64,000 nt of DNA from Escherichia coli (GTDB lineage Bacteria > Pseudomonadota > Gammaproteobacteria > Enterobacterales > Enterobacteriaceae). Positions 13,021 to 62,855 of this stretch are shown here, piece by piece; within the stretch, counting starts at the first letter, position 1, and each line of letters opens with the position of its first letter. Below the pieces are notes generated by a model, which was given only the letters and a program-made list of their open reading frames with translations, was not told the origin of the DNA and did not search any database. The translations under genes and the position numbers were made by a program. The DNA lies in assembly GCF_001677475.2 (NCBI RefSeq), contig NZ_CP015229.1, one strand, 5' to 3'.

Positions 13021-13376
13021 TTTTTGCGCCTCGTTATCATCCAAAATACGCCATGAATATCTCCAACGAGATAACACGGTTAAATCCTTCACCGGGGGAT
13101 CTGCTCAATATTAACTCTACCGATATCTTCGGCTTATGCCGAGCACCCCTGGCGATGTAAAGTCTACAACGTAGTTGAAAACTTACAAGTGTGAACTCCG
13201 TCAGGCATATGAAAAAAAAGTCTTGTATAAGGTACGTTTAATCTTTTTTGTCAGCGACAATTTACAGAAGAAAATCGCGGAAACCGCTTCAGACAAGCCT
13301 CTGCAAGGAAAATTAGTCACGACTGAAAGCATTGGCTGGGCGACAAAAAAAGTTCCAGGATTAATCCTAAATTTAC

Positions 13377-45689: not shown

Positions 45690-46716
45690 TGGCAAAAGTG
45701 GCTGACGGGATCCGCTACGCCGAACGTGTTGTTGCAGGAGAAATTGTTGCTGGCGAATTTGTCCGCCTGGCCTGCCAGCGTTTTCTTGATGATCTGAAGT
45801 ACGGCGAAGAGCGGGGGATTTATTTCAGTGAACCCCGTGCGCAGCACATCCTGAATTTCTACAAATTTGTGCCTCATGTAAAAGGGGCGCTGGCAGGCCA
45901 GCCCATTGAGTTGATGGACTGGCATGTATTTATTCTCATTAATATTTTTGGTTTTGTCATTCCGCTGGTCAATGAAGAGACCGGGGAAGTTGTCATGCGC
46001 AGCGATGGCAGTGGACGTCCGGTGATGGTGCGCCGGTTCCGGACGGCGTACAACGAAGTCGCTCGTAAAAACGCAAAATCAACTCTGTCATCGGGTATCG
46101 GCCTGTATATGACGGGGGCAGATGGTGAAGGCGGAGCTGAGGTGTATTCAGCCGCAACCACGCGTGACCAGGCCAGAATCGTGTTTGAAGACGCCAAAAA
46201 TATGGTCAGAAAAGCCCGGTCGACACTCGGGCGGTTGTTTGATTTCAACAAGCTGGCGATTTACCAGGAGCAGAGCGCATCAAAATTTGAACCGCTTTCT
46301 TCGGATGCAAACAACCTAGACGGTCTGAACATCCACTGCGCCATTATTGATGAGCTGCATGCACATAAAACCCGCGACGTGTGGGACGTTCTGGAAACGG
46401 CAACCGGTGCCCGTCTGCAGTCCCTGTTATTTGGTATCACCACGGCGGGCTTTAACAAGGAAGGGATTTGTTACGAGCAACGCGATTACGCCATCAAGGT
46501 ATTGCGAGGCTATAACAGCGACGTGGAGGGCGCGGTAAAAGACGACTCCTACTTTGCGATTATTTACACGCTCGATGAGGGAGATGATCCGTTTGATGAA
46601 ACGGTCTGGCAGAAAGCGAATCCGGGCCTGGGCATCTGTAAACGCTGGGATGATCTGCGTCGTCTGGCGAAAAAAGCGAAGGAGCAGGTCTCGGCGCGGG
46701 TGAATTTTTTCACGAA
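45689..46716 (+). pseudogene. Prophage terminase large subunit, N-terminal ~343 codons, interrupted by satellite insertion
   Basis: Aligns with satellite TerL N-terminus (PHVKGA..G.PIEL..W); frame runs into unrelated satellite DNA and stops at 46882. Confidence 0.8.
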
Positions 46717-46845
46717 GAAAGTAACATCACGCCGTAACAACAGTGCAGTCTGTCCTGATTTTTTTAGTAACCAAATGAAAGAAAAAGATTTTTTCTTGTT
46801 CGTCGTTTTTGTTTTTTCTGGATGGTTCTGGCTGTTTTCATCATT

Positions 46846-46867
46846 TGTGTATTGCACTGTGTATTGC
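46846..46867. repeat. Tandem GTGTATTGC repeats near satellite left end
   Basis: tgtgtattgcactgtgtattgc; near-identical copy at 62023-62043. Confidence 0.6.
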
Positions 46868-46887
46868 AAAAACGGGTTATAAATCAC

Positions 46888-48111
46888 ATGGCGCTAAACA
46901 AACTGAGCGATAAAAAACTTCGTTCCCTGCTTGGACGCAGGAGTGAGAGACAGGAAACCATCGCTGATGGTAACGGGCTTTCGGTACGGGTCAGTAAATA
47001 CGGATGTGTTAGTTTTGTTTTCTTTTACAGACTGGCGGGAAGGGGAACCGCGCCCATCTGGCTGACACTTGGAAAATATCCTGATCTGAGTCTCAAATCA
47101 GCGAGAGAGATGCGCGATCAGTGTCGAACCTGGCTTGCGGAGGGCAGAGATCCACGGATTCAGATAAAAATTGAACGGGAAGCCACCTTGCAACCTGTTA
47201 CCGTTCGTGAGGCACTTGAATACTGGCTTGATAATTATGCAATGGATAAGCGTAGGGGAGCAGAACATATCAGGCAGTGCTTTGGTAAACATATTTATCC
47301 GGTGATTGGTCATGTACCACTTAGTGATTGCTCTATATCTATGTGGATTAAGTGTTTTGACAAAATAAAAAAAGTAGCACCTGTACAGGCCGGAGCTTTG
47401 TTGCGTATATCAAAACAGGCGCTTAAATTTTGTAGGGTAAGAAAATACGCGATTAGTCATGAAATTGATGATCTTGAGGTCTGTGATGTGGGAAAAAAGT
47501 CTGCGCGAAGAAGCAGGGTTTTAACAGATGATGAAATCAGAGATTTATGGCGAAGTATTAATACTGATTATGACAATCACGAATTATCATATGAAAACCG
47601 AATTATTTTACGTTTCCTGGTAGTTTTTGGTTGCCGACTGTCAGAAGTATTACTGTCGTCCTGGGGAGAGTGGGATTTTGATAAGAAATTATGGCGCGTT
47701 CCCGCTGAACATAGCAAAAATGGCAGGGAAATAATCAGACCGATTCCTGATGGCATGTTTAACTGGTTAGTTACGTTAAAAAAAATAACAGGTAACAAAG
47801 AAAATGTGATTGGGTTTGATATGCGTCAGTGTACGGCAAGCGTAACTATCGGTAAGACATGGAAAAGGATGAAACACTCGGAGAAATGGACGGCGCATGA
47901 TATGCGAAGAGTGTTTGCCACAAAACTAAGTGATCATGGTTTTGAACATAATGTGGTTGAACAGTTGCTTGGGCACACATTAGGCGGTGTTGCCGGGGTT
48001 TATAACAGAAGCCAGTATATGGACAGAAAAAAAGAAGCTATGAACTGGTGGTACGACTATCTGAATAAGCAAATTAGTGGTGACGGTAATGATTCAAATA
48101 GTTACGCGTGA
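46888..48111 (+). CDS. int: P4-type tyrosine integrase
   Basis: 407 aa from MALNKLSDKKLRSLLGRR..GLSVRVSKYG (typical P4-family N-terminus); HDMRRVFAT...LGH...Y. Confidence 0.85.
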   Translation: MALNKLSDKKLRSLLGRRSERQETIADGNGLSVRVSKYGCVSFVFFYRLAGRGTAPIWLTLGKYPDLSLKSAREMRDQCRTWLAEGRDPRIQIKIEREATLQPVTVREALEYWLDNYAMDKRRGAEHIRQCFGKHIYPVIGHVPLSDCSISMWIKCFDKIKKVAPVQAGALLRISKQALKFCRVRKYAISHEIDDLEVCDVGKKSARRSRVLTDDEIRDLWRSINTDYDNHELSYENRIILRFLVVFGCRLSEVLLSSWGEWDFDKKLWRVPAEHSKNGREIIRPIPDGMFNWLVTLKKITGNKENVIGFDMRQCTASVTIGKTWKRMKHSEKWTAHDMRRVFATKLSDHGFEHNVVEQLLGHTLGGVAGVYNRSQYMDRKKEAMNWWYDYLNKQISGDGNDSNSYA

Positions 48112-48142
48112 AGAACTTGAAAATGATAAAACAATCGACAGG

Positions 48143-48310
48143 ATGATTAAGGAAGATGAATGTGCATGGTTAACCGCTCTTGGCAGGAGACACAGATCGT
48201 TACTTGAAAAGGAAGGAAAATTTCCACGAAAAATATGTATTGGTCCACAAACAAAAGTCTGGCGCTTATCTGAGGTGCTGGAATGGGTAAAAGGTGAATG
48301 GAAACCCTGA
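48143..48310 (+). CDS. AlpA-family DNA-binding protein, copy 1
   Basis: ORF 48077-48310; start at the internal Met (MIKEDECAWLTALG...); LSEVLEWV. Confidence 0.6.
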   Translation: MIKEDECAWLTALGRRHRSLLEKEGKFPRKICIGPQTKVWRLSEVLEWVKGEWKP

Positions 48311-48333
48311 GCTAAATTAAATGAGATATAATC

Positions 48334-48357
48334 AACCCGTCTTTTGGCGGGTTTTTT
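48334..48357 (+). terminator. Intrinsic terminator
   Basis: aacccgtcttttggcgggttttttt. Confidence 0.6.
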
Positions 48358-48373
48358 TATAGGTGATATTTTT

Positions 48374-48652
48374 ATGCAAAAATTTATTTATCCTACACCC
48401 GAAGAACGCATTCAGATTCTGAAAGATCATGGCGAACCGTATGATCGCCGTATACGCGAACATGAGTGTGCCAATCGTACCGGGCTTTCAAGAAGCAGAC
48501 GTTGGGTACTTGAACAGGAGGGAGCATTTCCTGCTCGTGCTCATTTAGGGAAAGTGTCTGTTTCCTGGTTGCTCTCTGATGTGCTCTGGTGGGTTATGCA
48601 TCCGCCAGGAGTAAAGGAAGTAAACAGCCCATACAAAAACGCCAATAAGTAA
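48374..48652 (+). CDS. AlpA-family DNA-binding protein, copy 2
   Basis: From MQKFIYPTPEER; ECANRTGLSRSRRWVLEQEGAFPA. Confidence 0.6.
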   Translation: MQKFIYPTPEERIQILKDHGEPYDRRIREHECANRTGLSRSRRWVLEQEGAFPARAHLGKVSVSWLLSDVLWWVMHPPGVKEVNSPYKNANK

Positions 48653-48660
48653 TTACCGAC

Positions 48661-48690
48661 AACCCCGCACCACGCAATGCGGGGTTTTTT
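48661..48690 (+). terminator. Intrinsic terminator
   Basis: aaccccgcaccacgcaatgcggggtttttt. Confidence 0.65.
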
Positions 48691-48706
48691 GTATGTGAGG
48701 TAGAAA

Positions 48707-49303
48707 GTGATGAATAAAAATATTGCCGTGACGGGCAAGGGTGACGCACGTCATGTGAAAAAATTCTGTGATATTCGTGATCTGGTCGTTCTGCGCTTTG
48801 ATAGTGTGAACGTTCGCGTGGTGTATCTGAACGGCGATCCGTGGTTTGTTGGCGCTGATGTGTGTGCGGCGCTGGAAATTAGCAACGTTACCGATGCTGT
48901 TTCAGTTCTGGATAACGATGAGGTAATGACCCTAGCTTTAACCGAGGGTCATTCAGGTAAGCGTGGTGGTGCCAGAAGTTGGAATGTTGTATCAGAATCA
49001 GGTTTTTACAAGTTGATCGCCAGAAGTCGCAAAGCTGTTAATCCTGGCACGTTCGCCCATCGTTTCAGTAATTGGGTATTCAGAAATGTGATACCGGGTA
49101 TCAGAAAAACGGGGGCTTATGGTATCCCGTGGGGCGCATTACAGGATTTTTCCCGCCGCAAAGAGCAATATCAGGTAAGTGCCAGCGAGAAGGGGAGGGA
49201 GCTACAGGCATGTAAGCGCAAAAAGCGTGAGCTAGAGGAAGAAGAAAAAAGGCTGATACGTGAATATCAGCCTGAGTTTTACTTTGGTGAGCGTATTCAG
49301 TAA
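48707..49303 (+). CDS. Bro-N domain protein (antirepressor-like)
   Basis: 198 aa; N-terminal ...VYLNGDPWFVGADVCAALEISNVTDAVSVLDNDE. Confidence 0.6.
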   Translation: MMNKNIAVTGKGDARHVKKFCDIRDLVVLRFDSVNVRVVYLNGDPWFVGADVCAALEISNVTDAVSVLDNDEVMTLALTEGHSGKRGGARSWNVVSESGFYKLIARSRKAVNPGTFAHRFSNWVFRNVIPGIRKTGAYGIPWGALQDFSRRKEQYQVSASEKGRELQACKRKKRELEEEEKRLIREYQPEFYFGERIQ

Positions 49304-49915
49304 CCACACGCGGTGCTGATTATACGGTACATCGTGTTAACCGAGAAGCTACCCACCAGCAAGGCAAAATCTTCTGCTAAAAAATGACATATGGCCAGTC
49401 GTCTGGAAAGCATGAAATTTTACAAAAATGGAAAATGAAGATTTTTATTGTGCTGGTGGGTAAAAACAAAAAGCGCCCCGTTGCCGGAGCGCCCTTGCGA
49501 ACAATTAACCTACTGCGCAAAAAAATGAATCTGTGCAGGGGGATTATATCAACCGTGTGACGAAGCGCCACAATTGCCGGATAACAGGCAAAGAAAAGGC
49601 CACCCGCTACGGTGGCCCTTCGACACAAGCTACACGTTATCCCCAACGCATGAGCGTCGCCAACAATGCCACATTTGCGGCTGGTGGGCAATGTGATCAG
49701 TGTGCTGGCTTGCTGGTGGGCTATTCCTGCTCTTTGGCCTTGCGTTGCTTTAGTGCTGCACGAGCTAATCAATCATTGTATATGAGGCGTGGAATCTTTT
49801 TTTCATCACTCCTGCATACACGCTCATTACTGACGTGTTCATTGCTGATGCAATTTCCCAGGAGGAAAGCAAATAAAAACAAAGAGCCAAGCCAGTATAG
49901 TACTTGCTGCATAAG

Positions 49916-50101
49916 TTATTCCTTATCTGATTCTTTGGTTTTTTTCCGTTGGCGGCGTTTGATCTCGCCACGCATGGCTGCGCTTATAAACTGCCCTGTA
50001 CTTTCGCCATCTTCTTTCACGTTTTCCATGCCTTCAATAATTTCATGGGCAATACGTGCAGTTACAGATTGTGATTTTGCATTCTTTGGACCTGTTGCCA
50101 T
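49916..50101 (-). CDS. Small putative ribbon-helix-helix regulator
   Basis: 61 aa from MATGPKNAKSQSVTARIAHEIIEG; GAGGGG RBS; divergent from rightward operon. Confidence 0.4.
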   Translation of the reverse strand: MATGPKNAKSQSVTARIAHEIIEGMENVKEDGESTGQFISAAMRGEIKRRQRKKTKESDKE

Positions 50102-50122
50102 GTCTAACCCCTCATGTTTTTG

Positions 50123-50204
50123 GTGTAAGACAATATACACGAAAAAAAACTATTTTAAAGGGTTGACGTGTAAGACACTGTTGTTTTATGTTGTGTCTTA
50201 CACC
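50123..50204. promoter_or_regulatory. Candidate operator array: three GTGTAAGACA(C) sites
   Basis: Sites at 50123-50132, 50168-50178 and inverted 50194-50204 (11-bp palindrome, 15-bp spacer) overlapping a TTGACG -35-like hexamer. Confidence 0.5.
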
Positions 50205-50300
50205 TTGAGTGTTCAAGGTTCAGAAACTGCGAAGCCCGTAGGTGCCGCTAACACCCACAGGCTTCTAACCACCAACGATAGTAATAGTATCGAGGCAGCT

Positions 50301-50504
50301 ATGAGAAATCATACCACACACCCGCAAGGGCGGGACTCGCACAACCTGAATAAATACATCTGGCGTTTTATCGCCCTGAGCACGGCACAACCGCGCGTAA
50401 TTCACATCGTGGCCACCAGCGAACAGGAAGCGCGTCAGCAATCTCCTGATGGCTGCGTGATGGTATTCGCCGCCCGTATTCGTCAGGGGTCACATCATGC
50501 GTAA
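50301..50504 (+). CDS. Small Icd-like/Ash-family-like protein, copy 1 (tentative)
   Basis: C-terminal WRF...ATSEQEARQQ...VFAARIRQG motif shared with the next ORF. Confidence 0.35.
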   Translation: MRNHTTHPQGRDSHNLNKYIWRFIALSTAQPRVIHIVATSEQEARQQSPDGCVMVFAARIRQGSHHA

Positions 50505-50790
50505 AAACCGCTTGCAAAAAATTATCACGGGACTGTATGCTTCCCGCGTCACCCACATGGTGACCGGGTTTGACAGCCTGAATACTACAGCGGACAGCCG
50601 CTTACATTCCGATATGCGGTTTTTTTGTGTCCGTAAACCTACCCATACCCGCATTATGGCGGGGCGTAACGGGGGAGCCTTTGCGCTCGCTGGTTCCTGT
50701 AGTGCCAGTCTGTCAACCCTGTTACGTCTCGCCACCATGTTTGACAGCGTAGTAGCGAGACTCCTTAATTTCACTACAGGAGCCTTTCAC

Positions 50791-50964
50791 ATGGCTGTAT
50801 CCACACGCCCTTATTTTGTCTGGCGCTTCATGCAGTGCCATGAAAAACAAACCTCACTCTTTACCGTCACGGCTGCCACTGAGCGCGAAGCACGCGCGCA
50901 GCTGCCGCACGCACATCTGATTTTTGTCGCCCGTATCCGTCAGGGGGTAAACCATGTTCAGTAA
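50791..50964 (+). CDS. Small Icd-like/Ash-family-like protein, copy 2 (tentative; may extend upstream to 50497)
   Basis: C-terminal VWRF...AATEREARAQ...IFVARIRQG. Confidence 0.35.
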   Translation: MAVSTRPYFVWRFMQCHEKQTSLFTVTAATEREARAQLPHAHLIFVARIRQGVNHVQ

Positions 50965-51175
50965 CAACACACCGGACGCAGCCGCAAAAGCGTTAACCAC
51001 GCTGATGCACGCGCTGATTGATATTGAATGCACGGCAGAGCTTGCGCAGAACAAAGGGAAGGAAGATTACACCGCGTTCTGCCTGGAATGTATCCGCTAT
51101 ATTTCTTCCCGCTCTCTGGATGAGGCTAAAAATATTCTTATTGCTGATTGTGAAAATGGGGGGGGTTATGCGTGA
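50954..51175 (+). CDS. Hypothetical protein
   Basis: 73-aa ORF. Confidence 0.3.
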   Translation: MFSNNTPDAAAKALTTLMHALIDIECTAELAQNKGKEDYTAFCLECIRYISSRSLDEAKNILIADCENGGGYA

Positions 51176-51391
51176 TGATCGTTTTAATTCCCTGAAACAG
51201 GAATTTTCCGGCGTGCCTGATGATGCGGCTGATGCGCTTTCGTCAATATCTGAAATAATGAGGGCGGCTTTTTTTCTTTCTTTGCACTGATGAGCACAGG
51301 GATACAGGGTTAAATATTCTTGATATCGCCGCTAACTATGCTGACTTCGTAACGGAAGCAGCGTCAAGAAAAACAACGGGTGGGGATTAAT

Positions 51392-51625
51392 ATGCGTGAT
51401 ATTTACATTGAAACAATAGACCGCGTATTTCTTGCACTTTCTCACAGTGAAAACATGCTGGAAATATTACGCATATGGCTTGAAACGCTTGGAGATAATG
51501 AACGTGATAAACAGAAATCCAGAATTGCCACGGCATTAATAACGCTTCTTGAGCCTGTAATAAATGAGTTACAGGAAATAGAGACATTACACGACAGATA
51601 TAAAGAACAGCACACCGGAGAATAA
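51392..51625 (+). CDS. Hypothetical protein
   Basis: ORF 51380-51625, start at MRDIYIETID. Confidence 0.35.
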   Translation: MRDIYIETIDRVFLALSHSENMLEILRIWLETLGDNERDKQKSRIATALITLLEPVINELQEIETLHDRYKEQHTGE

Positions 51626-51630
51626 AAATA

Positions 51631-51930
51631 ATGAAACTTAAATATTCTGGCTTAACTGCCAGCGGCCCCGCTCGGCCTGAAATCCGTAACGGCGATATTT
51701 ACCGCGACCAGTACGGTGGCACGGTAATGATTAAGGGCGTGGCGGGACGGTGCGTTACCTACCGCCGTGAAGGTTACGAATATGACTGCGTGATGCCTGT
51801 TTATCAGTTCCGGCGTGATTTTTCTCTGGTACAGGCAGCGCAACGCGGTAAGCCCACCAGCAACGCCAGGGCACGTGCAAACATCCAGAAACTGAAAACC
51901 ATGATTAACGGATTCAGGGGTAAAAAATGA
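51631..51930 (+). CDS. Hypothetical protein
   Basis: 99-aa ORF upstream of the rep gene. Confidence 0.35.
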   Translation: MKLKYSGLTASGPARPEIRNGDIYRDQYGGTVMIKGVAGRCVTYRREGYEYDCVMPVYQFRRDFSLVQAAQRGKPTSNARARANIQKLKTMINGFRGKK

Positions 51931-53336
51931 AACTGGCACCGAACGTAAAACTATTACCGAAAGATAAGCACACAGAAGCGATTATTTTCGCGGGTGTTGA
52001 TGCTCACTCATTTGCAGAGCACTACATCATTGCACAGGCCAAAAAGGCGGGAGACCCGACGCCTCCCGTTTACCTGGGCCGTTATCAGTTAAGCGAACTG
52101 GATAACTTGCAGATTGTTGATGAGGGGCGGTACAGGGCGACAGTGATACGCGCCGGAAATATTGACGAAGCGCAGCTGCTAACCATCGCGACGAAACTGG
52201 CGATCGCCGGAGTCCAGGAAGCGCGGCTGCTTTCTGAAAATTTCGAATTGCTGGAGAAATGGACCGACCAGCTACCACGGTTGCGGGAGACATGGGAGAG
52301 AGGGGAAAGCCTGGTAATGGCAAAAAACCCCCAACGAAACACCACGCTACCGATGAGCGTTGGATCTGCCGGATACGACACGCAGCTGGATTACGTGGTT
52401 AAGGGCATTATTCCGGCGTCGTCGCTGTGCAGCATATACGGGGCGAGCGGTTCCTATAAATCATTCCTTGCGGGTTCGTGGGCGTGTCACGTTTCCACGG
52501 GCCGCCAGTGGGGAGGCCGCAGGGTTGCGCATGGTGCCGTTCTCTATGTGGTTGGTGAAGGCGGTATTGGTGTACCACGTCGTGTAAAAGCCTGGGAGGT
52601 TGTGCACGATGTACAGGTGAAAAATCTGTACCTGGTAAACCGCCCCGTCTTTCCGGCGGTCCCGCTTGATGTTGATGAAATGGTTATCGCTGCCCGTCAG
52701 GTGGAGCGGGAAACGGGTAAACCTGTACGCATGATTATTCTGGATACGCTGGCGCGTTGCTTTGGCGGCAATGATGAAAATGATTCCCGTGATATGGGGG
52801 CGTTTATCCGTGGGTGTGACGAACTGAAACGACGCACAGGGGCTACGGTGCTGGTGGTTCACCATTCCGGCAAGGATGAGACGAAAGGCGCGCGAGGTTC
52901 CAGTGCATTCCGTGCGTCACTGGATGCCGAATACCGGATACGCAGAGAGGACGCAGGAAGCGAGGCGCTGGTAATCTCATGTACCAAAATGAAGGACGCG
53001 GAGGAACTTAAAGAAGCCGCCTACGATTTGCGGGTGGTGGAGCTATTTACCGACGCTGACGGCGAATTAATTACGTCGCTGGTGGTGGTGGATAAGCCGC
53101 GTCCTCCCGTTGAACTGGAGCGCATCGAGGAGGCAGGCAACAAGACGGAAAACCATACCGCGTTATGGGGGTGCATCCGGTCGCGCACACAGAACGGTGA
53201 TAAGTGCACTATTGCGCTGTTACGTGACGATATGAAAAAGCTGGGGTATGAGATGAAGCACTTCAGCCGCTGGTTACGCAAGCTGGAAAAAGACGGGGTT
53301 ATTTATATCGACGGTGATGACGTAGGCACGCTGTAA
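51927..53336 (+). CDS. Replication protein: RepA-like RecA-fold helicase/ATPase with C-terminal DNA-binding region
   Basis: 469 aa; Walker A GASGSYKS, Walker B MIILD, HHSGKDETKGARGSSA; iterons immediately downstream. Confidence 0.7.
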   Translation: MKLAPNVKLLPKDKHTEAIIFAGVDAHSFAEHYIIAQAKKAGDPTPPVYLGRYQLSELDNLQIVDEGRYRATVIRAGNIDEAQLLTIATKLAIAGVQEARLLSENFELLEKWTDQLPRLRETWERGESLVMAKNPQRNTTLPMSVGSAGYDTQLDYVVKGIIPASSLCSIYGASGSYKSFLAGSWACHVSTGRQWGGRRVAHGAVLYVVGEGGIGVPRRVKAWEVVHDVQVKNLYLVNRPVFPAVPLDVDEMVIAARQVERETGKPVRMIILDTLARCFGGNDENDSRDMGAFIRGCDELKRRTGATVLVVHHSGKDETKGARGSSAFRASLDAEYRIRREDAGSEALVISCTKMKDAEELKEAAYDLRVVELFTDADGELITSLVVVDKPRPPVELERIEEAGNKTENHTALWGCIRSRTQNGDKCTIALLRDDMKKLGYEMKHFSRWLRKLEKDGVIYIDGDDVGTL

Positions 53337-53530
53337 AAAGTGGGGTGCAAAAGTGGGGAGAGTGAGCAAAACGCCCGAAAAACGCCATTATTCCCCACTT
53401 TTCAACGTATATATACCCAAAAAAGTGGGGAGTAAAAAAATCTTTATGAAACAGCACGATAAAAATCAAAAACTCCCCACCTGTAACGAGGTGGGGAAGT
53501 GTAAAAAGTGGGGCGCAAAAGTGGGGAGTG
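53336..53530. repeat. Iteron array, candidate satellite replication origin
   Basis: Eight or more copies of AAAGTGGGG / CCCCACTTT in both orientations within ~195 bp. Confidence 0.7.
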
Positions 53531-53786
53531 ATGGGGAAATGACCAGAATACGCAGAGACAGAACAGAGCCGAAATATAAAGCGTTAGACATGACAGAGCT
53601 TTCCTTAACGGTGGCAATCAAAGCGATAGACCGCCACACGCGGGAAGGATACGCGAAGGAACATCCCGAACTGATAAGCGCATTCATGGCCGCAGCGGCT
53701 GCAAACTTTGCCACGCTGACAGAACGGGAGACAGCCGAGGCAGAACAGGTAACAACCATCAACGTTAAAACCGGAGGGGTGGAATC

Positions 53787-54212
53787 ATGACGGCACAGAT
53801 AGCAGCTTACGGGCGGCTGGTGGAGGACCCGCAGGTAAAACAGACCAGCAAGGGAACACCCATGACGCTGGCGAGTATGGCGGTTCCCCTGCCATGCAGC
53901 CAGGCAGATGACGGAACGGCGACGATGTGGTTATCCGTCCTGGCGTTTGGCAGACAGGCCGACGCACTGGCAAAACACCGCAAAGGCGAACTGGTGAGCG
54001 TGGCGGGTAACATGCAGGTAAGCCAGTGGACAGGGCAGAACGGCGAAACGCGGCAGGGCTGGCAGGTTATTGCAGACAGCGTAATCAGTGCGCGAACGGC
54101 GCGACCGGGCGGCAAAAAAGGCCAACAGGGGCAGGCCACTGACGCACTGAACAGGGCAAAACAACAGACAGGCCAGCACGATGATCCGTACGGGGACGGG
54201 ATACCGTTTTAA
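53787..54212 (+). CDS. ssb: Single-stranded DNA-binding protein
   Basis: 141 aa; OB-fold-like N-terminus, Gly/Gln-rich linker, acidic tail ending DDPYGDGIPF. Confidence 0.7.
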   Translation: MTAQIAAYGRLVEDPQVKQTSKGTPMTLASMAVPLPCSQADDGTATMWLSVLAFGRQADALAKHRKGELVSVAGNMQVSQWTGQNGETRQGWQVIADSVISARTARPGGKKGQQGQATDALNRAKQQTGQHDDPYGDGIPF

Positions 54213-54227
54213 GCAGTGAGGTACAGC

Positions 54228-54509
54228 ATGATTAAAGACAGCAAAGCGGAAGAACTGGAGGCTAAAGGGCTGTACCGGAGAGCGGCGGCACGTTGGGCTG
54301 ATGTTATGTGGCTGGTGAGCACTGACAAGGAGCGCGAACAAGTGGCAAAGCGTCGCGCGGAATGTATCCGTAAGGCAGCACGCCCACCAGTCATACCGGA
54401 TAATTTCGGAATACTGAAAGAGGCCATAAACCGCACACATACCGGGATGGGCTTACAGAAGCCTGGCGGTGAGATGTTCAGGAACTACCCGAAAAAAGGG
54501 GATAATTGA
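54228..54509 (+). CDS. Hypothetical small basic protein (possibly PerC-like regulator; tentative)
   Basis: ORF 54216-54509; KGLYRRAAARWADVMW motif. Confidence 0.3.
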   Translation: MIKDSKAEELEAKGLYRRAAARWADVMWLVSTDKEREQVAKRRAECIRKAARPPVIPDNFGILKEAINRTHTGMGLQKPGGEMFRNYPKKGDN

Positions 54510-54554
54510 TAACGGTTGTTAACTGTTTCTGGTATCGTGGTAGCAGGAGGAAAC

Positions 54555-54803
54555 ATGCCAGTGACATTTGAAGAAGTCCAGCAACATAAAAAGCTTCATG
54601 GTTTTGATGATCTGGAAACCACGACAGCAAAAAAATATCGCCGGCTGCTTTCTTCCGATGCGTTATTTTTTGTGGATCATCATGATTTTCTGCGTAGCTC
54701 ACTGACCGGGGAAATTTTCGCAACCAACCGTGAGCAGGTGGAAGCGATGATCGAATATCTGTGGAAAATAAGGCGCAGAATGCGTGATCCCGTGAAACGG
54801 TAG
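54555..54803 (+). CDS. Hypothetical protein
   Basis: ORF 54516-54803, start at MPVTFEEVQQ. Confidence 0.35.
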   Translation: MPVTFEEVQQHKKLHGFDDLETTTAKKYRRLLSSDALFFVDHHDFLRSSLTGEIFATNREQVEAMIEYLWKIRRRMRDPVKR

Positions 54804-54811
54804 AATAATAA

Positions 54812-54842
54812 TGGCCTGGTATTTTCCAGGCCATTTTTTTTT
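54812..54842 (+). terminator. Intrinsic terminator
   Basis: ggcctggtattttccaggcc followed by T-run. Confidence 0.7.
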
Positions 54843-55314
54843 AGAAGTCGATCTCTGTATCGCGATTAAATTCATCGCTAAGGTAAAGTGCTTCGCTTGG
54901 GCATTTTCCGTTTTCCAGTAATGTTTCCCAGAAATCTTTATCGAAACACCCCTCAAGATACAGATAGCGGCAGATGTGAAGTAAATCACTTCGTGTCCAT
55001 CCGTGCATGCTGCTACTTGTTACACCATATTCACTTTCTAGTTTATAGAATGTGAGCGCCTCCCGGTCGTGCCAGGCTTTGCACAGACGATCGTATATCT
55101 TTTTAGCTTTGTTTTTAGATGTGCCGAAAAACTCTTCGTAAATTTCATGTGGGCGAGTAGGAATACTTCCGTCGCCATCCTGCAAGAAAGGATAAACATC
55201 TGCCTCCCAGGCATACACGTAAGAATCGCTGAACTCATCATAGTGTTTACCAAGGTGGAGAATCTGCAATCGTTGCTGAATGAACATTGCTTTTTTCAGT
55301 TCATTTTCTGACAT
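54841..55314 (-). CDS. Hypothetical 157-aa protein on the opposite strand (candidate accessory/cargo gene)
   Basis: Only minus-strand gene within the replication-packaging span; no family recognised. Confidence 0.5.
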   Translation of the reverse strand: MSENELKKAMFIQQRLQILHLGKHYDEFSDSYVYAWEADVYPFLQDGDGSIPTRPHEIYEEFFGTSKNKAKKIYDRLCKAWHDREALTFYKLESEYGVTSSSMHGWTRSDLLHICRYLYLEGCFDKDFWETLLENGKCPSEALYLSDEFNRDTEIDF

Positions 55315-55608
55315 AGTTCGTTCCTCCTGATTAACGAGCAGAAAATGTACGGAACAGCTTATTTATTTTTTCAGGTTTTGTAAGTTATTTGTTCGTGGTT
55401 GTTCCAGGTTGTTCGGTGATTCTGGCTGATGTTTACATACTGATTTTTATGTATATGTTGGCGTGTGGCACTCAGACGTGAGCCGCCACAATGCCGCCTG
55501 ACCCCCTGCGCGATGCCGGGTTGATCTGCGAGATGCCGAGAGTGTCGGGCGGCGCTCCCTCCGTGTTGGTTTCACGTCCTGAATCTTAACCAATACGAGA
55601 AAACCTTC

Positions 55609-56754
55609 ATGAAGAAATTAATCGAACTCCGCCAGCAAAAAACCGCCCTGAAAAACCAGATGCGATCCCTGCTGGAAAAAGCCGACAGTGAAAACCGCAG
55701 CCTGAACGATGACGAAGGCAAACAGTTTGATGAACTGCGTGCAAAAGCCGATTCCCTCGACACAGAAATCTCCCGTCTTGAAGCTGTTGCGGATGAAGAA
55801 CGTAACCAGCCAGGTGTTTGCGTCGAAGAGAAAATTACCAAAGACGAACTGCGCTCTTACATTCTGACCGGGGAAACCCGCAACCTGTCCGGCAGTGTTC
55901 CGGCTGATGGTGGTTATACGGTTATCCCGGAACTGAACAGAGAAATTATGCGTCAGCTTTCTGATGAATCGGTGATGCGTAAAATCTGTACTGTTAAAAC
56001 CATTCACAGCAATGAATTTAAGCAACTGGTTTCTGCCGGGGGCGCGGTCGTTGAACACGGTGAAGAAGGCACTACACGTAACCAGACGGCAACCCCAAAA
56101 CTGAATGAAGTCAGTATCCGCCTGTATCCGATCTACGCTTACCCGAAAACCACTCAGGAAATTATCGATTTTTCCGAAGTCGATATTATGGGCTGGTTAT
56201 CTTCTGAAATTGGCGACACTTTCGTTGATACCGAAGAAACGGATCTGGTTTCTGGTGATGGCGAGAAAAAAGCTAAAGGTTTCCTGGCTTTTCCGCGCAC
56301 TGAGGATAACGACAAAACCCGTCCTTTCGGTACGCTCCAGACGAAAAAAGTTACTGGCAGTCTTAGCGCCGACATGCTGATTGACCTGAAATTTACGCTG
56401 CGCAATAAGTACCGCAAAAAAGCTGTATGGGTGATGAACTCAAATACAGCCGCCTCCGCACAAAAACTGAAAAATGCCACTGGTGATTACATCTGGCGCG
56501 ATCGTTTACAGGCTGGTGATCCTGATTCTCTGCTGGGGCTTCCGGTTGAATATCTGGAATTTATGCCGGACGGTGTGATTGCAGTAGGTGACTTTAAGCG
56601 CGGTTATTTCATCGTTGACCATGAAACCGGTACGCGTACCCGTCCGGATTTCAGCGAACCTGGATTCATTAACATCTATACCCAGAAATATCTGGGCGGT
56701 GGTGTGGTGGATTCGAACGCCATCAAGATTCTGGAAATTCAGGCTGGCAAGTAA
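55609..56754 (+). CDS. Major capsid protein (HK97 fold)
   Basis: 381 aa; N-terminal coiled-coil delta region; hairpin after stop. Confidence 0.8.
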   Translation: MKKLIELRQQKTALKNQMRSLLEKADSENRSLNDDEGKQFDELRAKADSLDTEISRLEAVADEERNQPGVCVEEKITKDELRSYILTGETRNLSGSVPADGGYTVIPELNREIMRQLSDESVMRKICTVKTIHSNEFKQLVSAGGAVVEHGEEGTTRNQTATPKLNEVSIRLYPIYAYPKTTQEIIDFSEVDIMGWLSSEIGDTFVDTEETDLVSGDGEKKAKGFLAFPRTEDNDKTRPFGTLQTKKVTGSLSADMLIDLKFTLRNKYRKKAVWVMNSNTAASAQKLKNATGDYIWRDRLQAGDPDSLLGLPVEYLEFMPDGVIAVGDFKRGYFIVDHETGTRTRPDFSEPGFINIYTQKYLGGGVVDSNAIKILEIQAGK

Positions 56755-56803
56755 TGAGCAAAGGGGGCTTCGGCCTCCTTTTTCAGCTTTATGGAGTACA
56801 CCG

Positions 56804-57364
56804 ATGAAAAACACCGATTTTGAAATCCGTACATCTGAACTGACCGCCAGCGATAAAAAACTGGTGGGTTATGCCGTTCGCTGGAACAGCCTTTCAGAAA
56901 TTATTTGGGACGAATTCCGCGAACAGTTCACGCCGGGGGCTTTTGCTGACTATCTGGCGGCGGGTAATGATGTGCGCTGCCTGTATGAGCATGACTATAC
57001 CCGACTGCTGGGGCGCACCAAATCCGGAACACTGGTACTGACTGAGGACAACACCGGGCTACGTTTTGAACTGACACCGCCTGATACCCAGCTTGGAAAA
57101 GATGTGCTTACGCTGGTGGAGCGTGGCGACATTACAGGAATGAGCTTTGGCTTTCGCGCATTATGCGAAGAGTGGAATATCGCGCAAAAACCGTATCTGC
57201 GCACTGTTACCGCCGCAGAACTCCGTGAAATCACGATAACGTCGATGCCTGCTTATCCCGAATCTGGCGTGGAGATTGCCCACCGTTCGTTGTTTGCACA
57301 GCACCCTGAATTACGCCCGGCAGGAAATAATCGTCATCGCTGGGCTGAACTGGCGGGGTTGTGA
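56804..57364 (+). CDS. Prohead maturation protease (HK97 family)
   Basis: 186 aa from MKNTDFEIRTSELTASDKKLVGYAVRWNS. Confidence 0.75.
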   Translation: MKNTDFEIRTSELTASDKKLVGYAVRWNSLSEIIWDEFREQFTPGAFADYLAAGNDVRCLYEHDYTRLLGRTKSGTLVLTEDNTGLRFELTPPDTQLGKDVLTLVERGDITGMSFGFRALCEEWNIAQKPYLRTVTAAELREITITSMPAYPESGVEIAHRSLFAQHPELRPAGNNRHRWAELAGL

Positions 57365-57365
57365 T

Positions 57366-58580
57366 ATGTGGTGGCCTTTTAGTCGTAAAAAAAGCGATCT
57401 GCGTAACCTGTCCATTGATGATTTTCTGGCGCTGTCCGGCGTACCGAATACCGGATCCGGAGAATATGTTTCTGCCGGGACGGCTGAATCATTGCCTGCT
57501 GTGATGAACGCGGTTTCTGTCATCGCTGAGGCGGTGGCCACGATGCCGTGTTATCTGTATCTGGTACGCAATGATAAGGGCAGGGAGGCGCGGGAGTGGC
57601 TGGACAGTCATCCGGTCGATATTCTGCTGAATGAGCAGCCTAATTCGTGCCAGACACCTTACCAGTTTAAACGCACAATGATGCGTCACTGCCTGCTGAA
57701 CGGTAACGCCTATGCGGTTATTGAGTGGGGGCGGGACGGTCAGCCAAAATCACTTCATCCTTATGCGCCGGGGTGTGTTGTACCGGAACGCACTGGCGCG
57801 CACAAATACCGCTATACCATCACCGAACCCTATACAGGAACGGTGCGCACGTATTTACAGGAAGAAGTCCTGCATCTCCGCTATGCCTCGGATGATGGCT
57901 TTCTGGGACGTTCCCCCGTCACGATTTGCCGTGAGGCGCTGGGGCTTGGCCTTGCTCAACAGCGTCACGGAGCCAGCATTATGAAAGATGGCATGATGGC
58001 GGCAGGGATTATCACGTCAGGCGAATGGCTGGACGGTGTGAAAGGTAAACAGGCATTAGACGCCCTGGAACGCTACAAGGGGGCGAAAAATGCCGGAAAA
58101 ACGCCAATCCTTGAAGGGGGCATGGATTACAAGCAACTGGGGATGAGTAACCAGGATGCGGAATGGCTGGCCTCCCGTCGCTTCTCCATTGAAGACATCG
58201 CCCGGATGTTCAACGTGTCGCCGATTTTTCTTCAGGAATACAGCAACAGCACCTACAGCAATTTCAGTGAGGCAAGCCGCGCGTTTCTGACCATGACAAT
58301 GCGCCCATGGCTGGCGAACTTCGAACAGCAAATTAAGGCCGCTTTGCTGGTGGCTTCTCCCGTACCTGGTACCCGTTATCTGGTTGAGTTTGATTCAGCC
58401 GATTTACTGCGCGCTACTCCAACCGAGCGTTACGCCACGTATGAGAAAGGGATTAAGAACGGGATCATGAATCCGAACGAAGCCCGCGAACGTGAGGGGA
58501 TGCCGCCGCGTGAAGGTGGCGACGAATTCAGCCAGGCATGGAAGCAGACGGTGGAAATTAAAGGTGAAAAAGATGAGTGA
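57366..58580 (+). CDS. Portal protein (HK97 family)
   Basis: 404 aa from MWWPFSRKK; homologous to the prophage portal at 63049. Confidence 0.8.
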   Translation: MWWPFSRKKSDLRNLSIDDFLALSGVPNTGSGEYVSAGTAESLPAVMNAVSVIAEAVATMPCYLYLVRNDKGREAREWLDSHPVDILLNEQPNSCQTPYQFKRTMMRHCLLNGNAYAVIEWGRDGQPKSLHPYAPGCVVPERTGAHKYRYTITEPYTGTVRTYLQEEVLHLRYASDDGFLGRSPVTICREALGLGLAQQRHGASIMKDGMMAAGIITSGEWLDGVKGKQALDALERYKGAKNAGKTPILEGGMDYKQLGMSNQDAEWLASRRFSIEDIARMFNVSPIFLQEYSNSTYSNFSEASRAFLTMTMRPWLANFEQQIKAALLVASPVPGTRYLVEFDSADLLRATPTERYATYEKGIKNGIMNPNEAREREGMPPREGGDEFSQAWKQTVEIKGEKDE

Positions 58581-58872
58581 AGAAAAAATTACACCTGATG
58601 AAGTCAGGGCACATCTTCGCCTTGATGACTTTTCCGGAGAGGGCGAACTTCTGAAAATGTATACCGATGCGGCGCTGGAAGCCTGCCAGAAGCATATCGG
58701 GAAACGTTTTGAAGACGGCCTGGAATTTACCCCGGCAATACGTGTTGGTTGCCTGATGTACATTGCTTTCCTGTACGAGAACAGGGAAGCGGTTTCACCT
58801 GTGGAGCAGTCTGAACTGCCTATGGCTATTTCTGCGCTCTGGTCGGTTTATCGTGATGTGGGGGTGTACTGA
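58573..58872 (+). CDS. Head-tail connector/adaptor (gp6-like)
   Basis: 99 aa from MSEEKITPDEVRAHLRLDDFSGEGELL. Confidence 0.6.
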   Translation: MSEEKITPDEVRAHLRLDDFSGEGELLKMYTDAALEACQKHIGKRFEDGLEFTPAIRVGCLMYIAFLYENREAVSPVEQSELPMAISALWSVYRDVGVY

Positions 58873-59312
58873 TGCCGTGGCAACCATTAAGGCGATGCAC
58901 TGAGCCGGGCTGTAATAAGCGCGTGAAGTCCGGCAAGTGTGAAGAGCACAGGCGGGCTGCATGGCGTGCAGAGGATGCCAGACGGGGACACCGCCGCGCG
59001 CGCGGGTATTCCCGACAGTGGGACAAATACCGCGCCCTGTACCTGAGCAAAAACCCGTTATGCGTGCGTTGTCTGGCTAAGGGGATTTATACGCCAGCTC
59101 TTGTGGTGGATCACATCATTCCCATCAATGGCGGCGGTGATGTTCTCTTCTGGCCTGAGTGGAACCACCAGGCATTGTGCCAGACGTGCCACAACCGTAA
59201 GACGACACGGGAAGACCCAGCCACGAAAGCGAACCGTAAGGCGGGCATGTATCGCGAGCAGGAAGAACGGGCGGCACACCGTAACGACTGGATGTATGGC
59301 GATGATGACTGA
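58872..59312 (+). CDS. HNH endonuclease (terminase-associated)
   Basis: 146 aa; CVRCL...VDHIIPINGGG...CQTCHNRKT. Confidence 0.75.
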   Translation: MPWQPLRRCTEPGCNKRVKSGKCEEHRRAAWRAEDARRGHRRARGYSRQWDKYRALYLSKNPLCVRCLAKGIYTPALVVDHIIPINGGGDVLFWPEWNHQALCQTCHNRKTTREDPATKANRKAGMYREQEERAAHRNDWMYGDDD

Positions 59313-59481
59313 ACATGAGCAAAACAGGCTGATACGTGGACTGATAAGGCAACGTGACTTATGGAAGACACAGGAGACAGGGCACAAAGCCAACAGGACA
59401 GGGCGCACAGAACGCACCACAGCGAAGCGATTAACCGACCGTGACCGCGAGGTCATGGAATGTTTTCGCAATCGCTGGTGA
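59302..59481 (+). CDS. Hypothetical small basic protein
   Basis: ~59 aa Arg-rich ORF between HNH and terS. Confidence 0.3.
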   Translation: MMTEHEQNRLIRGLIRQRDLWKTQETGHKANRTGRTERTTAKRLTDRDREVMECFRNRW

Positions 59482-59600
59482 GGCTGTCAGAGGGGGTGGG
59501 GGAGGTTTTCAGGACGAAACCGTCCCTGCCGGACACCGACCGCCTCCTCAAATTTTTGTGCACGGTAATTTTTTTGAAAATAATTGGGCGAAAAAAGAAC

Positions 59601-59957
59601 ATGGCAAGACCACCAAAAGCCCCCGCTTACCTGGATGAAATCGCGGTCAGGCAGTGGAAGGAAAAATCGCGCCAGCTTTCCGTGCGGGAAGACCTTACCC
59701 CCGCCGACTGGAGCAATCTGGAACTGTATTGTGTTAACTACTCCATATACCGCAAAGCCGTCGAAGACCTTGCGACGCGCGGGTTCAGCATTGTTAACAG
59801 TCAGGGCAGCGAGAGCAGAAACCCCGCCCTGAGCGCAAAGGCTGACGCGGAAAGAATAATGATCAAAATGGCTTCTTTGCTGGGTTTTGACCCGGTAAGC
59901 CGCCGCAGAAATCCACCGGAAACAGAGGAAGAGGACGAGCTTGACCGCCTGGCATGA
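59601..59957 (+). CDS. Terminase small subunit (P27-family-like)
   Basis: From MARPPKAPAYLDEIAV; same M-x-x-PPK-xP start as prophage TerS. Confidence 0.7.
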   Translation: MARPPKAPAYLDEIAVRQWKEKSRQLSVREDLTPADWSNLELYCVNYSIYRKAVEDLATRGFSIVNSQGSESRNPALSAKADAERIMIKMASLLGFDPVSRRRNPPETEEEDELDRLA

Positions 59958-61602
59958 GTACGCAGAAGGCGTAAAAAACGGCAAAATTACGGCCTGTAAA
60001 CGACTGAAACAGGCCGTTAAACGGTATTTTTCTGACCTTGAAAACCCCCTTTACACGTTCGAGCCGGAGGTCGTGGAGCGGTTTATTGCCTTTTCCAGGG
60101 TGTGTCCGCACGTAAAAGGCGCAATGCGCGGTAGCCCCATTGAGCTGGAGCCGTGGCAGCAGTTCGCCTTTGCGTGCATCCTGGGCTTTAAGGTTAAGGC
60201 CACCGGACGGCGCAAATACACCAGCGCATTCATTGAAGTACCGCGTAAAAATGCCAAATCCACGGTCGCCGCTATCCTGGCTAACTGGTTTCTGGTTATG
60301 GAAAACGGGCAGCAGGATATTTACACCGCCGCCGTGAGTCGTGATCAGGCGCGGATCGTGTTTGATGATGCGCGTCAGATGTGCCTTTTATCCCGACCGT
60401 TACGAAAGCGGGTAAATATTCAGGCACACAAGGTGATACACCCGAAAACCAACAGCCTGTTAAAGCCACTGGCAGCAAAAGCGGCAACCATTGAAGGTAC
60501 AAACCCGAGTCTTGCTATTGTGGATGAATATCACCTGCACCCTGACAACGGGGTTTATTCCGCGCTTGAACTGGGAATGGGGGCGCGTCCGGAGGGGTTA
60601 TTATTTGCCATCACCACATCGGGGAGCAACGTTGTTTCAGCCTGTAAACAACACTACGACTATTGCTGCCAGATACTGGATGGTGAAGAGGTGAACGAAT
60701 CCATGTTCGTGCTGATTTACGAGCTGGATGATGAAAGCGAGGTTGACGATCCGGCGATGTGGATAAAGGCGAATCCCAATATCGATGTTTCCGTCGATCG
60801 TGAAAAACTGGCCTCAACCATCCAGAAAGCGCGGGGTATTCCGTCGCAGTGGGTGGAGATGCTCACCAAGCGATTCAATATCTGGTGTCAGGGGGCTACG
60901 CCGTGGATGGGTAACGGTGCATGGGCGGAGTGCGCCGGAACGTTCGCGGAGGCGGATTTATACGGGCAGGAGTGCTACGCGGGGCTGGACTTATCATCAA
61001 CCAGCGATATTTCCAGCGTGTGCTATGCCTTTCCGGTCGGTAAAAAGATTATGCTGGTTTCCCGTCACTATCTGCCGGAATTTCAGCTACAGAACCCCGC
61101 CAATAAAAACCGCGCCATCTATCGCCAGTGGGTAAAGGCGGGCTGGATACGCACAACACCGGGTGACTGCATTGATTATGACCGTATCCGTGATGACATC
61201 ATGGCGGATGCAGAGAATTTCAATATCAGGCTGGTGGGCTTCGATACATGGAACGCCACGCACCTGAGGACGCAGCTACAGGGCGCAGGATTTGAGGTGG
61301 AGCCGTTCCCGCAAACATACCTTCGTTTCAGTCCGGCGGCGAAATCGTTCGAAGTTTTTGTTAACCGGAAGGTGATTGTGCATCGTGGTGATCCGGTGCT
61401 GGCCTGGTCAATGAGTAATGTTGTGATGCAGAGTGACGCGAACGCCAATATCAAGCCGAACAAGAAAAAATCATCCAACAAGATAGACCCGAGCGTTGCG
61501 GCGCTGATGGCGTTTGGCACATTCCAGGCAGAGCATGAGGAATTTGCATTCGATATGAGCGACAGCCACAAAGAGCGGCTTGCGGCGTTTGATGGTGTGT
61601 AA
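59941..61602 (+). CDS. Terminase large subunit (intact, satellite-encoded)
   Basis: 553 aa; collinear homolog of the two prophage terL fragments. Confidence 0.85.
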   Translation: MTAWHEYAEGVKNGKITACKRLKQAVKRYFSDLENPLYTFEPEVVERFIAFSRVCPHVKGAMRGSPIELEPWQQFAFACILGFKVKATGRRKYTSAFIEVPRKNAKSTVAAILANWFLVMENGQQDIYTAAVSRDQARIVFDDARQMCLLSRPLRKRVNIQAHKVIHPKTNSLLKPLAAKAATIEGTNPSLAIVDEYHLHPDNGVYSALELGMGARPEGLLFAITTSGSNVVSACKQHYDYCCQILDGEEVNESMFVLIYELDDESEVDDPAMWIKANPNIDVSVDREKLASTIQKARGIPSQWVEMLTKRFNIWCQGATPWMGNGAWAECAGTFAEADLYGQECYAGLDLSSTSDISSVCYAFPVGKKIMLVSRHYLPEFQLQNPANKNRAIYRQWVKAGWIRTTPGDCIDYDRIRDDIMADAENFNIRLVGFDTWNATHLRTQLQGAGFEVEPFPQTYLRFSPAAKSFEVFVNRKVIVHRGDPVLAWSMSNVVMQSDANANIKPNKKKSSNKIDPSVAALMAFGTFQAEHEEFAFDMSDSHKERLAAFDGV

Positions 61603-61681
61603 CGGAATGGATGAGAGAGGACAATGCTCATTTAATGGAATAAATTTTCAGTATTACCGGCACCCACTTTCAGGGATGTTT

Positions 61682-61837
61682 TTGCGGGTTATTTGAGGGG
61701 TGTTTGCGGGTTATTTTGAATGTCTTGCGGGTTACATTCTGGCTGATATTTAAATACGTTGTTTTTTTAACGTATTGATATTAAAGAGTAAAAGATAATT
61801 AGCACGCGAAGATAACCCGCTAACCCGCATAACCCGC
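61682..61837. repeat. Symmetric repeat array near satellite right end
   Basis: Three direct TTGCGGGTTA and three inverted TAACCCGC copies flanking an AT-rich palindrome (aatacgtt...aacgtatt). Confidence 0.6.
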
Positions 61838-62022
61838 ACTGTTTTGTATATATATACGAAAAATTGCATTCAGGGGGGATCGAAATTTCTACTGCCTCTT
61901 ATCTCTTTGAGTGCTCACCTCGTCAGATTGTTACACACAAGAAATAAAAAATGCTTCGCGATGGTAGGTCGAATCACTGTATCAAAAAACGGTGTGTATC
62001 AGCATTAAAACAATACAGATAC

Positions 62023-62043
62023 GTGTATTGCGCTGTGTATTGC
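62023..62043. repeat. Tandem GTGTATTGC repeats near satellite right end
   Basis: gtgtattgcgctgtgtattgc, matching 46846-46867. Confidence 0.6.
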
Positions 62044-62118
62044 TCGATGATTTATAAAGACTGTTTTTTCATGTTAAACGATTGATATACAGACGATTTT
62101 AAAAAGCTTGAAATATTC

Positions 62119-62855
62119 TCACGAAACACATGAATGTGTGGGTCACTGCCGAATCGGCCTGGATGGACATGATTAAGTGGGAGAAGTGCGAATACATCGC
62201 TCCACAGCATGAGCTGAAAACGTATCCCATGTGGGTCGGCGTCGACCTTGCACATAAGATTGATATCTGTGCGGCGGCAAAACTCTGGCGAACGGATAAC
62301 GGGCATGTTCATGCCGATTTTAAATTCTGGCTTCCGGAAGGGCGACTGGAACGGTGTTCACGGCAGCAGGCAGAACTTTACCGGAAGTGGGCGGAGATGG
62401 ATAAGCTCATCCTGACGGATGGTGATGTTATCGATCATGCTCAGATAAAAAGTGACTTACTGGAATGGATTGGTGGTGAAAACCTCAGGGAACTGGGATT
62501 TGACCCGTGGAGCGCGATGCAGTTCAGCCTGGCACTGGCTGAAGAAGGGATACCGCTGGTGGAGGTTCCGCAGACGGTCCGCAATCTGTCAGAGGCCATG
62601 AAGGAAACGGAATCACTGGTCTATGCCGGACGTTTCCACCACAGCAATCACCCGGTCATGAACTGGATGATGTCTAACGTTACGGTGAAACCGGACAAAA
62701 ACGACAATATCTTCCCGAATAAATCCACGCCGGAAGCCAAAATCGACGGCCCTGTTGCGATGTTTACAGCAATGAGCCGGATGCTGGTCAATGGCGGTGA
62801 ACCGGAGCCGGATCTGTCTGAACACCTGATCAGTGTTGGTATCCGCTCGCTTTAA
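62119..62855 (+). pseudogene. Prophage terminase large subunit, C-terminal ~245 codons (resumes after satellite)
   Basis: LTKHMNVWVTAESAWM aligns with satellite TerL LTKRFNIWCQGATPWM. Confidence 0.8.

Follow-up and report, generated by a model that had tools for sequence, protein, structure and literature searches.

In P4, the alpha protein binds both the ori and the crr clusters, and crr is needed in cis for replication. The origin of PICIs has been described as two sets of iterons around an AT-rich region that directly follows the 3' end of rep, and in EcCICFT073 this rep-adjacent region was reported to be sufficient for the replication of a plasmid (Fillol-Salom et al., ISME J 2018; PMC6092414). 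[quoted passage not shown] The attP of P4, as annotated in NC_001609, carries tandem 12-bp arm repeats at -64 to -87 and +122 to +146 from the core, and the int ATG is located at +161.

The satellite and its insertion site

The window, that is, the whole 64 kb stretch of E. coli DNA that was analysed, contains a PICI satellite of 15.4 kb (46717-62118) whose target gene is the terL of a prophage. The left boundary within the prophage terL was placed at an attL core, TCACGAA (46710-46716), and the prophage terL frame resumes at an attR core of the same sequence (62119-62125); both were read from the sequence and from a rebuilt empty site. For the rebuild, positions 46560-46716 were joined to 62126-62285, which gave an uninterrupted terL with one copy of the 7-bp repeat, and 905 E. 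coli genomes contain an unbroken match to this product, with an identity of up to 99.1%. The ends of the satellite are fixed because the rebuilt site matches intact terL genes, and since the site was rebuilt as one terL, the 7-bp core is duplicated at both ends. The prophage gene is split at positions 448/449 of the PHROG profile. Its halves are located at 45689-46716 and 62126-62855, and the satellite has a complete terL of its own (59941-61602) that belongs to the same family, phrog_9. Because the satellite interrupts the helper terL, the helper prophage is without a terminase of its own until the satellite is excised.

Among the early genes, PHROG searches identified a tyrosine integrase, two AlpA/excisionase-like proteins, a BRO/anti-repressor, a replication helicase, an SSB, and a PerC-like regulator; the head and packaging set was complete (major capsid protein, protease, portal, adaptor, HNH, TerS, and TerL). 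Based on this gene content and on the insertion in terL, the satellite is a capsid-forming PICI (cf-PICI) and a HE-PICI at once. As expected of a HE-PICI, the int, AlpA-like, and rep genes run in the same direction as the prophage terL (+ strand). The integrase (46888-48111, + strand; PHROG integrase) contains the Pfam domains Arm-DNA-bind_3 at residues 6-92 (E = 2.4e-17) and Phage_integrase at residues 211-377, and the replication protein of 469 aa (51927-53336, + strand) is a RepA-family helicase with the Pfam domain AAA_25. The two AlpA/excisionase-like genes follow int in tandem (48077-48310 and 48344-48652), as they do in E. coli 042; most of the PICIs examined have one. The E. coli 042 satellite shows the same arrangement, and its copy of the 516-bp region between the satellite terL and the right end (61603-62118) is 98.6% identical. 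The gap between HNH and terS (59313-59600) contains a G-rich stretch and, 21 bp apart at 59376 and 59397, direct repeats of GACAGGGCRCA; with an HNH-dependent terminase, it is where the satellite's own cos site would be expected.

Doubled motifs on either side of the attachment core

The sequence GTGTATTGC was found in exactly four copies in the 64 kb, arranged as two tandem pairs with a 12-bp period (46847/46859 and 62023/62035); 0.55 copies were expected by shuffling, and none of 100 shuffles reached four. The int-proximal doubled motif, TGTGTATTGCA-c-TGTGTATTGCA, is located on the + strand at 46846-46868, at 133-155 bp from the core centre, and the int start codon follows 20 bp after it. 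The core-distal doubled motif, cGTGTATTGCgcTGTGTATTGCt, is located on the + strand at 62022-62044, at 78-100 bp from the core centre. These measurements agree with the initial annotation, which had placed the pairs at about 130 bp inside the left end and about 75 bp inside the right end. An IHF consensus, TATCAATCGTTTA (62075-62087, - strand), lies between the right doublet and the core.

The doublets correspond to the published HE-PICI motif in that tandem pairs of tgTGTATTGCantgTGTATTGCa are present in two co-oriented copies, with nearest edges at about 78 and 133 bp. Sequence, copy number, distances, and late-gene insertion with co-orientation are the same as reported, and nothing essential differs (PMC10111431). 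An exact-pattern scan of IMG/VR, in which the motif columns are conserved by construction, returned at least 120 stretches with the doublet. Among the matches listed, the stretches were typically co-oriented pairs about 8.6-11.6 kb apart, and at least 52 distinct contexts on the int side and at least 54 on the far side were represented. In the first subset (41 int-side and 36 far-side distinct contexts), the doublet was the only conserved stretch and the flanks were divergent. A strict IHF consensus was present in 12 of the 54 distinct far-side contexts, against 0.6 expected by shuffling, and nine of these were at the same offset (again among the matches listed). The IMG/VR contig L192 has, in place of a doublet, an array of at least 12 units of the TGTATTGC type with a 12-bp period (5142-5800).

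The geometry is close to that of the P4 attP. The window equivalents of the P4 arm positions are -78 to -100 and +133 to +155, with the int start at +175, and in both systems tandem 12-bp repeats of the same orientation are present on both sides of the core, the int start is 16-20 bp past the int-side pair, and the integrase has an arm-binding domain. The two systems differ in that the repeat sequences are unrelated (TTGGGGGCAT in P4, TGTGTATTGCA here), P4 has two further single copies of its repeat, and the target here is a prophage gene and not a tRNA gene.

The best reading of the doublets is that they are predicted arm-type integrase sites, a prediction based on position, conservation, and analogy with P4. 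In the excised circle, the TGTGTATTGCA doublets would flank the TCACGAA core within attP, where they would be bound by the N-terminal Arm-DNA-bind_3 domain of this P4-family tyrosine integrase. Bending of the IHF type in the DNA that separates the right doublet from the core may help to build the recombination complex, as in the attP of P4 and lambda. AlpA could be the protein that binds the doublets instead of Int. Arm-type sites were also the reading of the initial annotation, which thus gains from position, conservation, the P4 analogy, and the arm-binding domain of the integrase, and which had already been published (PMC10111431). Since the doublet motif itself is known, what is added here is the parallel with the P4 arm geometry and the IHF consensus in a subset of elements.

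The right-end repeat block and its relatives

The second repeat structure is located at 61682-61837 and consists of three direct and three inverted copies of GCGGGTTA around a 78-bp AT-rich spacer, all six falling within 156 bp, which is the layout described for PICI origins. The exact coordinates bear out the six copies counted in the initial annotation. On the left arm (61682-61734, + strand), exact direct copies of TTGCGGGTTA start at 61682, 61704, and 61725 with spacings of 22 and 21 bp; on the right arm (61813-61837, - strand), the inverted copies, TAACCCGC, start at 61813, 61821, and 61830 with spacings of 8 and 9 bp. In the spacer (61735-61812), an AT-rich palindrome had been noted (AATACGTT at 61752-61759 and AACGTATT at 61769-61776). 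This palindrome is no longer intact in E. coli 042 and PSS-15 lacks it; the feature that is conserved instead is an IHF consensus, TATCAATACGTTA, at 61768-61780 (- strand). The block is closed by TGTTTTGTATATATATACGAAAAATTG (61840-61866, + strand), which is invariant in the right-end alignment and is found after such blocks across iteron classes; it is possibly a DNA-unwinding element or a promoter. It is followed by a segment without an ORF (61867-61968, about 100 bp) that is 80-90% conserved with any iteron type or integrase and is common only to elements that have the block at the right end.

Of the 516-bp query, the part common to many E. coli islands is confined to positions 60-366 (window 61662-61968), and the last 150 bp by the core, doublet included, are specific to terL-embedded elements. 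The layout of three direct and three inverted iterons closed by TGTATATATATACGAAAAATTG recurs at the right end of PICIs that differ in integrase, att site, and packaging strategy, inserted at yejO/tRNA-Pro (PSS-15), cspD-clpS (F11, Rpp-type, without terminase genes), and rcnR-thiM (CEA106S). In these right-end relatives, the iterons, the spacer IHF consensus, and the closing sequence are conserved while the flanks diverge: in five right-end blocks, none of 48 columns within the iteron cores was variable, against 39 of 154 outside the cores (p = 1e-5). A scan of genome contigs with the anchor TATATATATACGAAAAATTG returned one locus only, in E. albertii.

The same relatives bear on whether the block supplies extra Int or AlpA/excisionase sites of attP, since its distance from the core is no more than about 440 bp and the arm that it occupies also bears the doublet. 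The integrases of the block-bearing PICIs at the other sites are only 23-46% identical to that of the window, and the block is kept across all four sites (terL included); it is the 150 bp adjacent to the core that change with the integrase, and the block does not. HE-PICIs with the same doublets are often without the block, and in other elements it is placed kilobases from att, next to rep. This reading is given hardly any weight.

In a second group of elements, block homologues adjoin rep (L004, L007, L034-L046, and others). AR_0077 and EC20017429 have a rep-adjacent GCGGGTTA cluster followed directly by a GCGGGTTA block. Among 80 IMG/VR loci with homologues of the DUF927 Rep (57-100% identity), the commonest layout was that of a first iteron cluster (part A) and then a second (part B) after the rep stop codon; in this contiguous layout, 2 direct, 4-5 inverted, 2-3 direct, and 3 inverted iterons occupy about 300 bp. 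In E. coli EC20017429 (L007), the tight inverted run of part B has grown from three to seven tandem copies of TAACCCGC (12969-13026), which suggests slippage-type variation in iteron number.

In the DUF927 lineage, part B either follows part A directly or is found 2-9 kb away at the right end of the element; in the lineage related to E. coli 042, it is displaced by 7.4-9.3 kb. E. coli 042 and PSS-15 have a rep-adjacent cluster of GCGGGTTA (2 direct and 4 inverted copies) and a right-end block that is also of GCGGGTTA, and in SCU-115, CM2, and E. albertii both the rep-adjacent and the right-end clusters are made of GGGACAAG, with the same arrangement of three and three and the same closing sequence. 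A distal second cluster of the same iterons was found in these five and in at least 16 IMG/VR loci; the window is without a partner cluster. Further iteron families in the IMG/VR DUF927 loci are ACCCGCA, TAACCCA, GGGACAA/GGACAAC, GGGATAA, GAACCAA, and AACCACG. In about 90 related elements, which between them use at least six iteron sequences, the iteron of part B was always that of part A. A DnaA-box consensus, TTATNCACA, was observed right after the two direct iterons of part A in E. coli DUF927-type elements (L001 at 8964, L002 at 6651, L004 at 13841, and L005 at 11604); no DnaA box was found in part B or in the RepA-type origin of the window.

On this sequence comparison, block 61682-61837 is assigned as part B of a putative two-part iteron origin for a DUF927-type primase-helicase. 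It shares with the published PICI origin the two iteron sets and the AT-rich region, and its homologues are often immediately 3' of rep; it differs in that the origin is doubled in the DUF927 lineage and its second part is movable to the right end (PMC6092414). Of the options offered in the initial annotation, a replication signal is favoured by these data. Further recombination sites are disfavoured by independence from the integrase and by the rep-adjacent position in relatives, and a packaging signal by a cf-PICI that lacks the block.

That cf-PICI is located at the fis site of E. coli D8 and has nearly the same packaging proteins as the window (identical residues: TerS 117/118, TerL 550/553, and HNH 145/146), and it contains neither GCGGGTTA nor the anchor. 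It bears on whether the block could be a cos or pac site for the HNH-TerS-TerL of the satellite, comparable to the R sites of cosB with IHF: the block directly follows terL, and its order of repeats, IHF, and repeats recalls lambda cosB. Such a role is very improbable, given that the block is also present in PICIs without any terminase genes (F11, PSS-15, and SCU-115), adjoins rep in many elements, and co-varies in sequence with Rep and not with TerS, and that the lambda-like cosN matches of F11 are upstream of its block.

Part B has also been considered as a promoter or operator controlled by Rep, acting on the SSB operon in the contiguous forms, or on int across attP after circularisation in the right-end forms. 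In contiguous origins, the three tight iterons and TTTTGTATATATACG..AAAAAT end 25-35 nt before the RBS and start codon of the next gene, and excision would place the block, in the orientation of int, some 450 bp upstream of that gene. This role is quite improbable: a scan of 61500-62300 returned no sigma-70-like promoter (shuffles averaged 2.3), and the three widely spaced direct iterons and the IHF spacer would be left unexplained. A terminator scan of the same region was also empty, and an Rfam scan of it returned only a meaningless miRNA match (E = 0.6). A candidate sRNA at 61838-61975 was examined with RNAalifold on both strands and is not supported: hardly any compensatory changes were seen, and the best hairpin is disrupted in the window.

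The assignment to an origin is tied to the replication protein by covariation. The central region of the DUF927 Rep is at least 95% identical across iteron types, and in its C-terminal 130 aa or so, identity is 97-100% among proteins of one iteron type and 32-50% among those of different types; about 71 of the 88 alignment columns that discriminate the types are in this C-terminal part, and its three classes track three iteron families. Because of this three-way covariation, which is the main evidence, the C-terminal domain is predicted to bind the block, and it is from the covariation that we infer that these 130 aa specify the iteron. The AlphaFold model of the domain is of low confidence (pLDDT 54.5), with a helix-helix-hairpin topology that fits a winged helix; no match to the domain was found among PDB sequences, and literature searches with the iteron sequences and with DUF927 plus iterons gave nothing relevant. 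In cognate elements such as the E. coli 042 satellite, Rep would bind both the rep-adjacent part A and part B.

An arrangement of this kind is seen in P4, where ori and crr are two clusters of the same iteron located kilobases apart, one adjoining the replication gene and one distal to it, with one of the two adjoining attP and int (NC_001609). The two systems differ in that the rep-adjacent cluster, crr, is the one that adjoins attP in P4, and the distal cluster adjoins attP in PICIs. No detectable sequence similarity was found between P4 alpha and the DUF927 Rep.

A probable half-origin beside another replication module

In this window, the block is 8.3 kb downstream of rep, and the rep-adjacent place is held by a different origin, which had been missed in the initial annotation together with the fact that the end-block iterons do not match it. 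This resident origin (53336-53535, + strand), directly 3' of rep, is of the canonical PICI form, with at least six AAAAGTGGGG (AAAAGTGGGGA) iterons in two sets around an AT-rich stretch. A tblastn search over the 64 kb found no GCGGGTTA-type Rep C-terminal domain (best E = 0.4). The window Rep is 80-94% identical to proteins annotated as 'helicase RepA family protein' in L010 and L011 and matches the 042 DUF927 Rep only over the N-terminal 130 aa or so (132 aa, 62.9% identical). Each of the RepA-type PICIs L010, L011, L125, L152, and L182 has one origin only and is without an end block, as is normally the case for RepA-type PICIs, including HE-PICIs with AAGTGGG iterons. Most genes on both sides of the replication module have 94-100% protein identity to those of E. 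coli 042; the capsid protein has 68%.

The N-terminal domain of about 130 aa is common to the RepA-helicase, DUF927, and primase-type Reps, with 39-69% identity between types and no Pfam match (window 51927-52320, L001 6800-7195, and the rep genes of L003, L010, and L212), and it is always encoded after a DUF4222 gene. Cf-PICIs with a 'DNA primase family' Rep have rep-adjacent CTGTTCACC iterons (L092 7247-7464 and L212 8328-8545), and these contain the 8-mer TGTTCACC, which recurs through the crr region of the P4 record. One capsid-forming packaging module thus travels with at least three replication modules. The satellite SSB (window 53787-54212; 86-95% identical) is present in every element with part B and is absent or much more divergent in three block-less PICIs. 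A presence/absence screen for another block-binding protein was also performed; only SSB co-occurs with the block, and since SSB is not a sequence-specific binder, this candidate was rejected.

Because no GCGGGTTA-type Rep is encoded in the window, the block is probably a non-cognate orphan here. The simplest history would be that the replication module was swapped recently for a RepA-type helicase with its own AAAAGTGGGGA origin, and that part B was left behind. The orphan block would be silent unless a GCGGGTTA-type Rep were supplied in trans. The overall explanation, in which the doublets are predicted arm sites and the block, as a cis-acting system unrelated to them, is a part B half-origin that is orphaned in this window, is given a probability of about 0.7.

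An intact GCGGGTTA block was found beside three non-cognate Reps, namely the RepA of the window, the GTAGACAG-type primase of F11, and the CTGTTCACC alpha-like primase of CEA106S. Iterons that are invariant in such mismatched elements could reflect a function that is independent of the resident Rep, and not a recent leftover. The block might then be a working cis element here, either a second origin or a crr-like enhancer acting through IHF, through unwinding at the TATATATA run, or through the shared N-terminal domain of Rep. In keeping with this, the iteron cores are invariant in all three kinds of mismatched element, more than one Rep family is involved in such mismatches, both the IHF consensus and the TGTATATATATACG element persist from one iteron class to another, and the Reps of the window and of E. 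coli 042 share the N-terminal domain noted above. That domain, however, does not track iteron type: E. coli 042 and AR_0077 share iterons and are only 28-57% identical there. RepA-type PICIs are normally without the block, and the rep-adjacent origin of EcCICFT073 replicates a plasmid by itself (PMC6092414). The flanks are 97-100% identical to those of 042, and because the swap therefore looks recent, the iterons could be intact without any selection. A working cis element in this window is considered unlikely.

A related suggestion, made tentatively and at similarly low odds, is that the half-origin is kept by selection between satellites. It might be a handle by which the DUF927 Rep of another PICI in the same cell replicates the element, or it might act as a decoy for the Rep of a competitor (iteron-type incompatibility); in cognate elements, it might act like crr, with looping to the rep-adjacent half being needed for firing. 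Over both suggestions, the orphan half-origin remains the preferred reading. What is new is this proposed half of a two-part iteron origin, which is displaced and, in this window, does not match the resident Rep; the doublet motif is known.

For annotation, the comparison is a warning that end repeats of this kind should not be called att or cos sites. For the biology of these satellites, it describes a large Enterobacterial PICI lineage with a two-part iteron origin, the second half of which may sit kilobases off beside attP, and in which both origin halves evolve together with the C-terminal domain of Rep. Module swaps between satellites would leave intact, mismatched half-origins behind. 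This provides a testable model of satellite replication by looping of the P4 ori/crr kind, of the diversification of replication specificity, and of how satellites may use or block each other's Reps.
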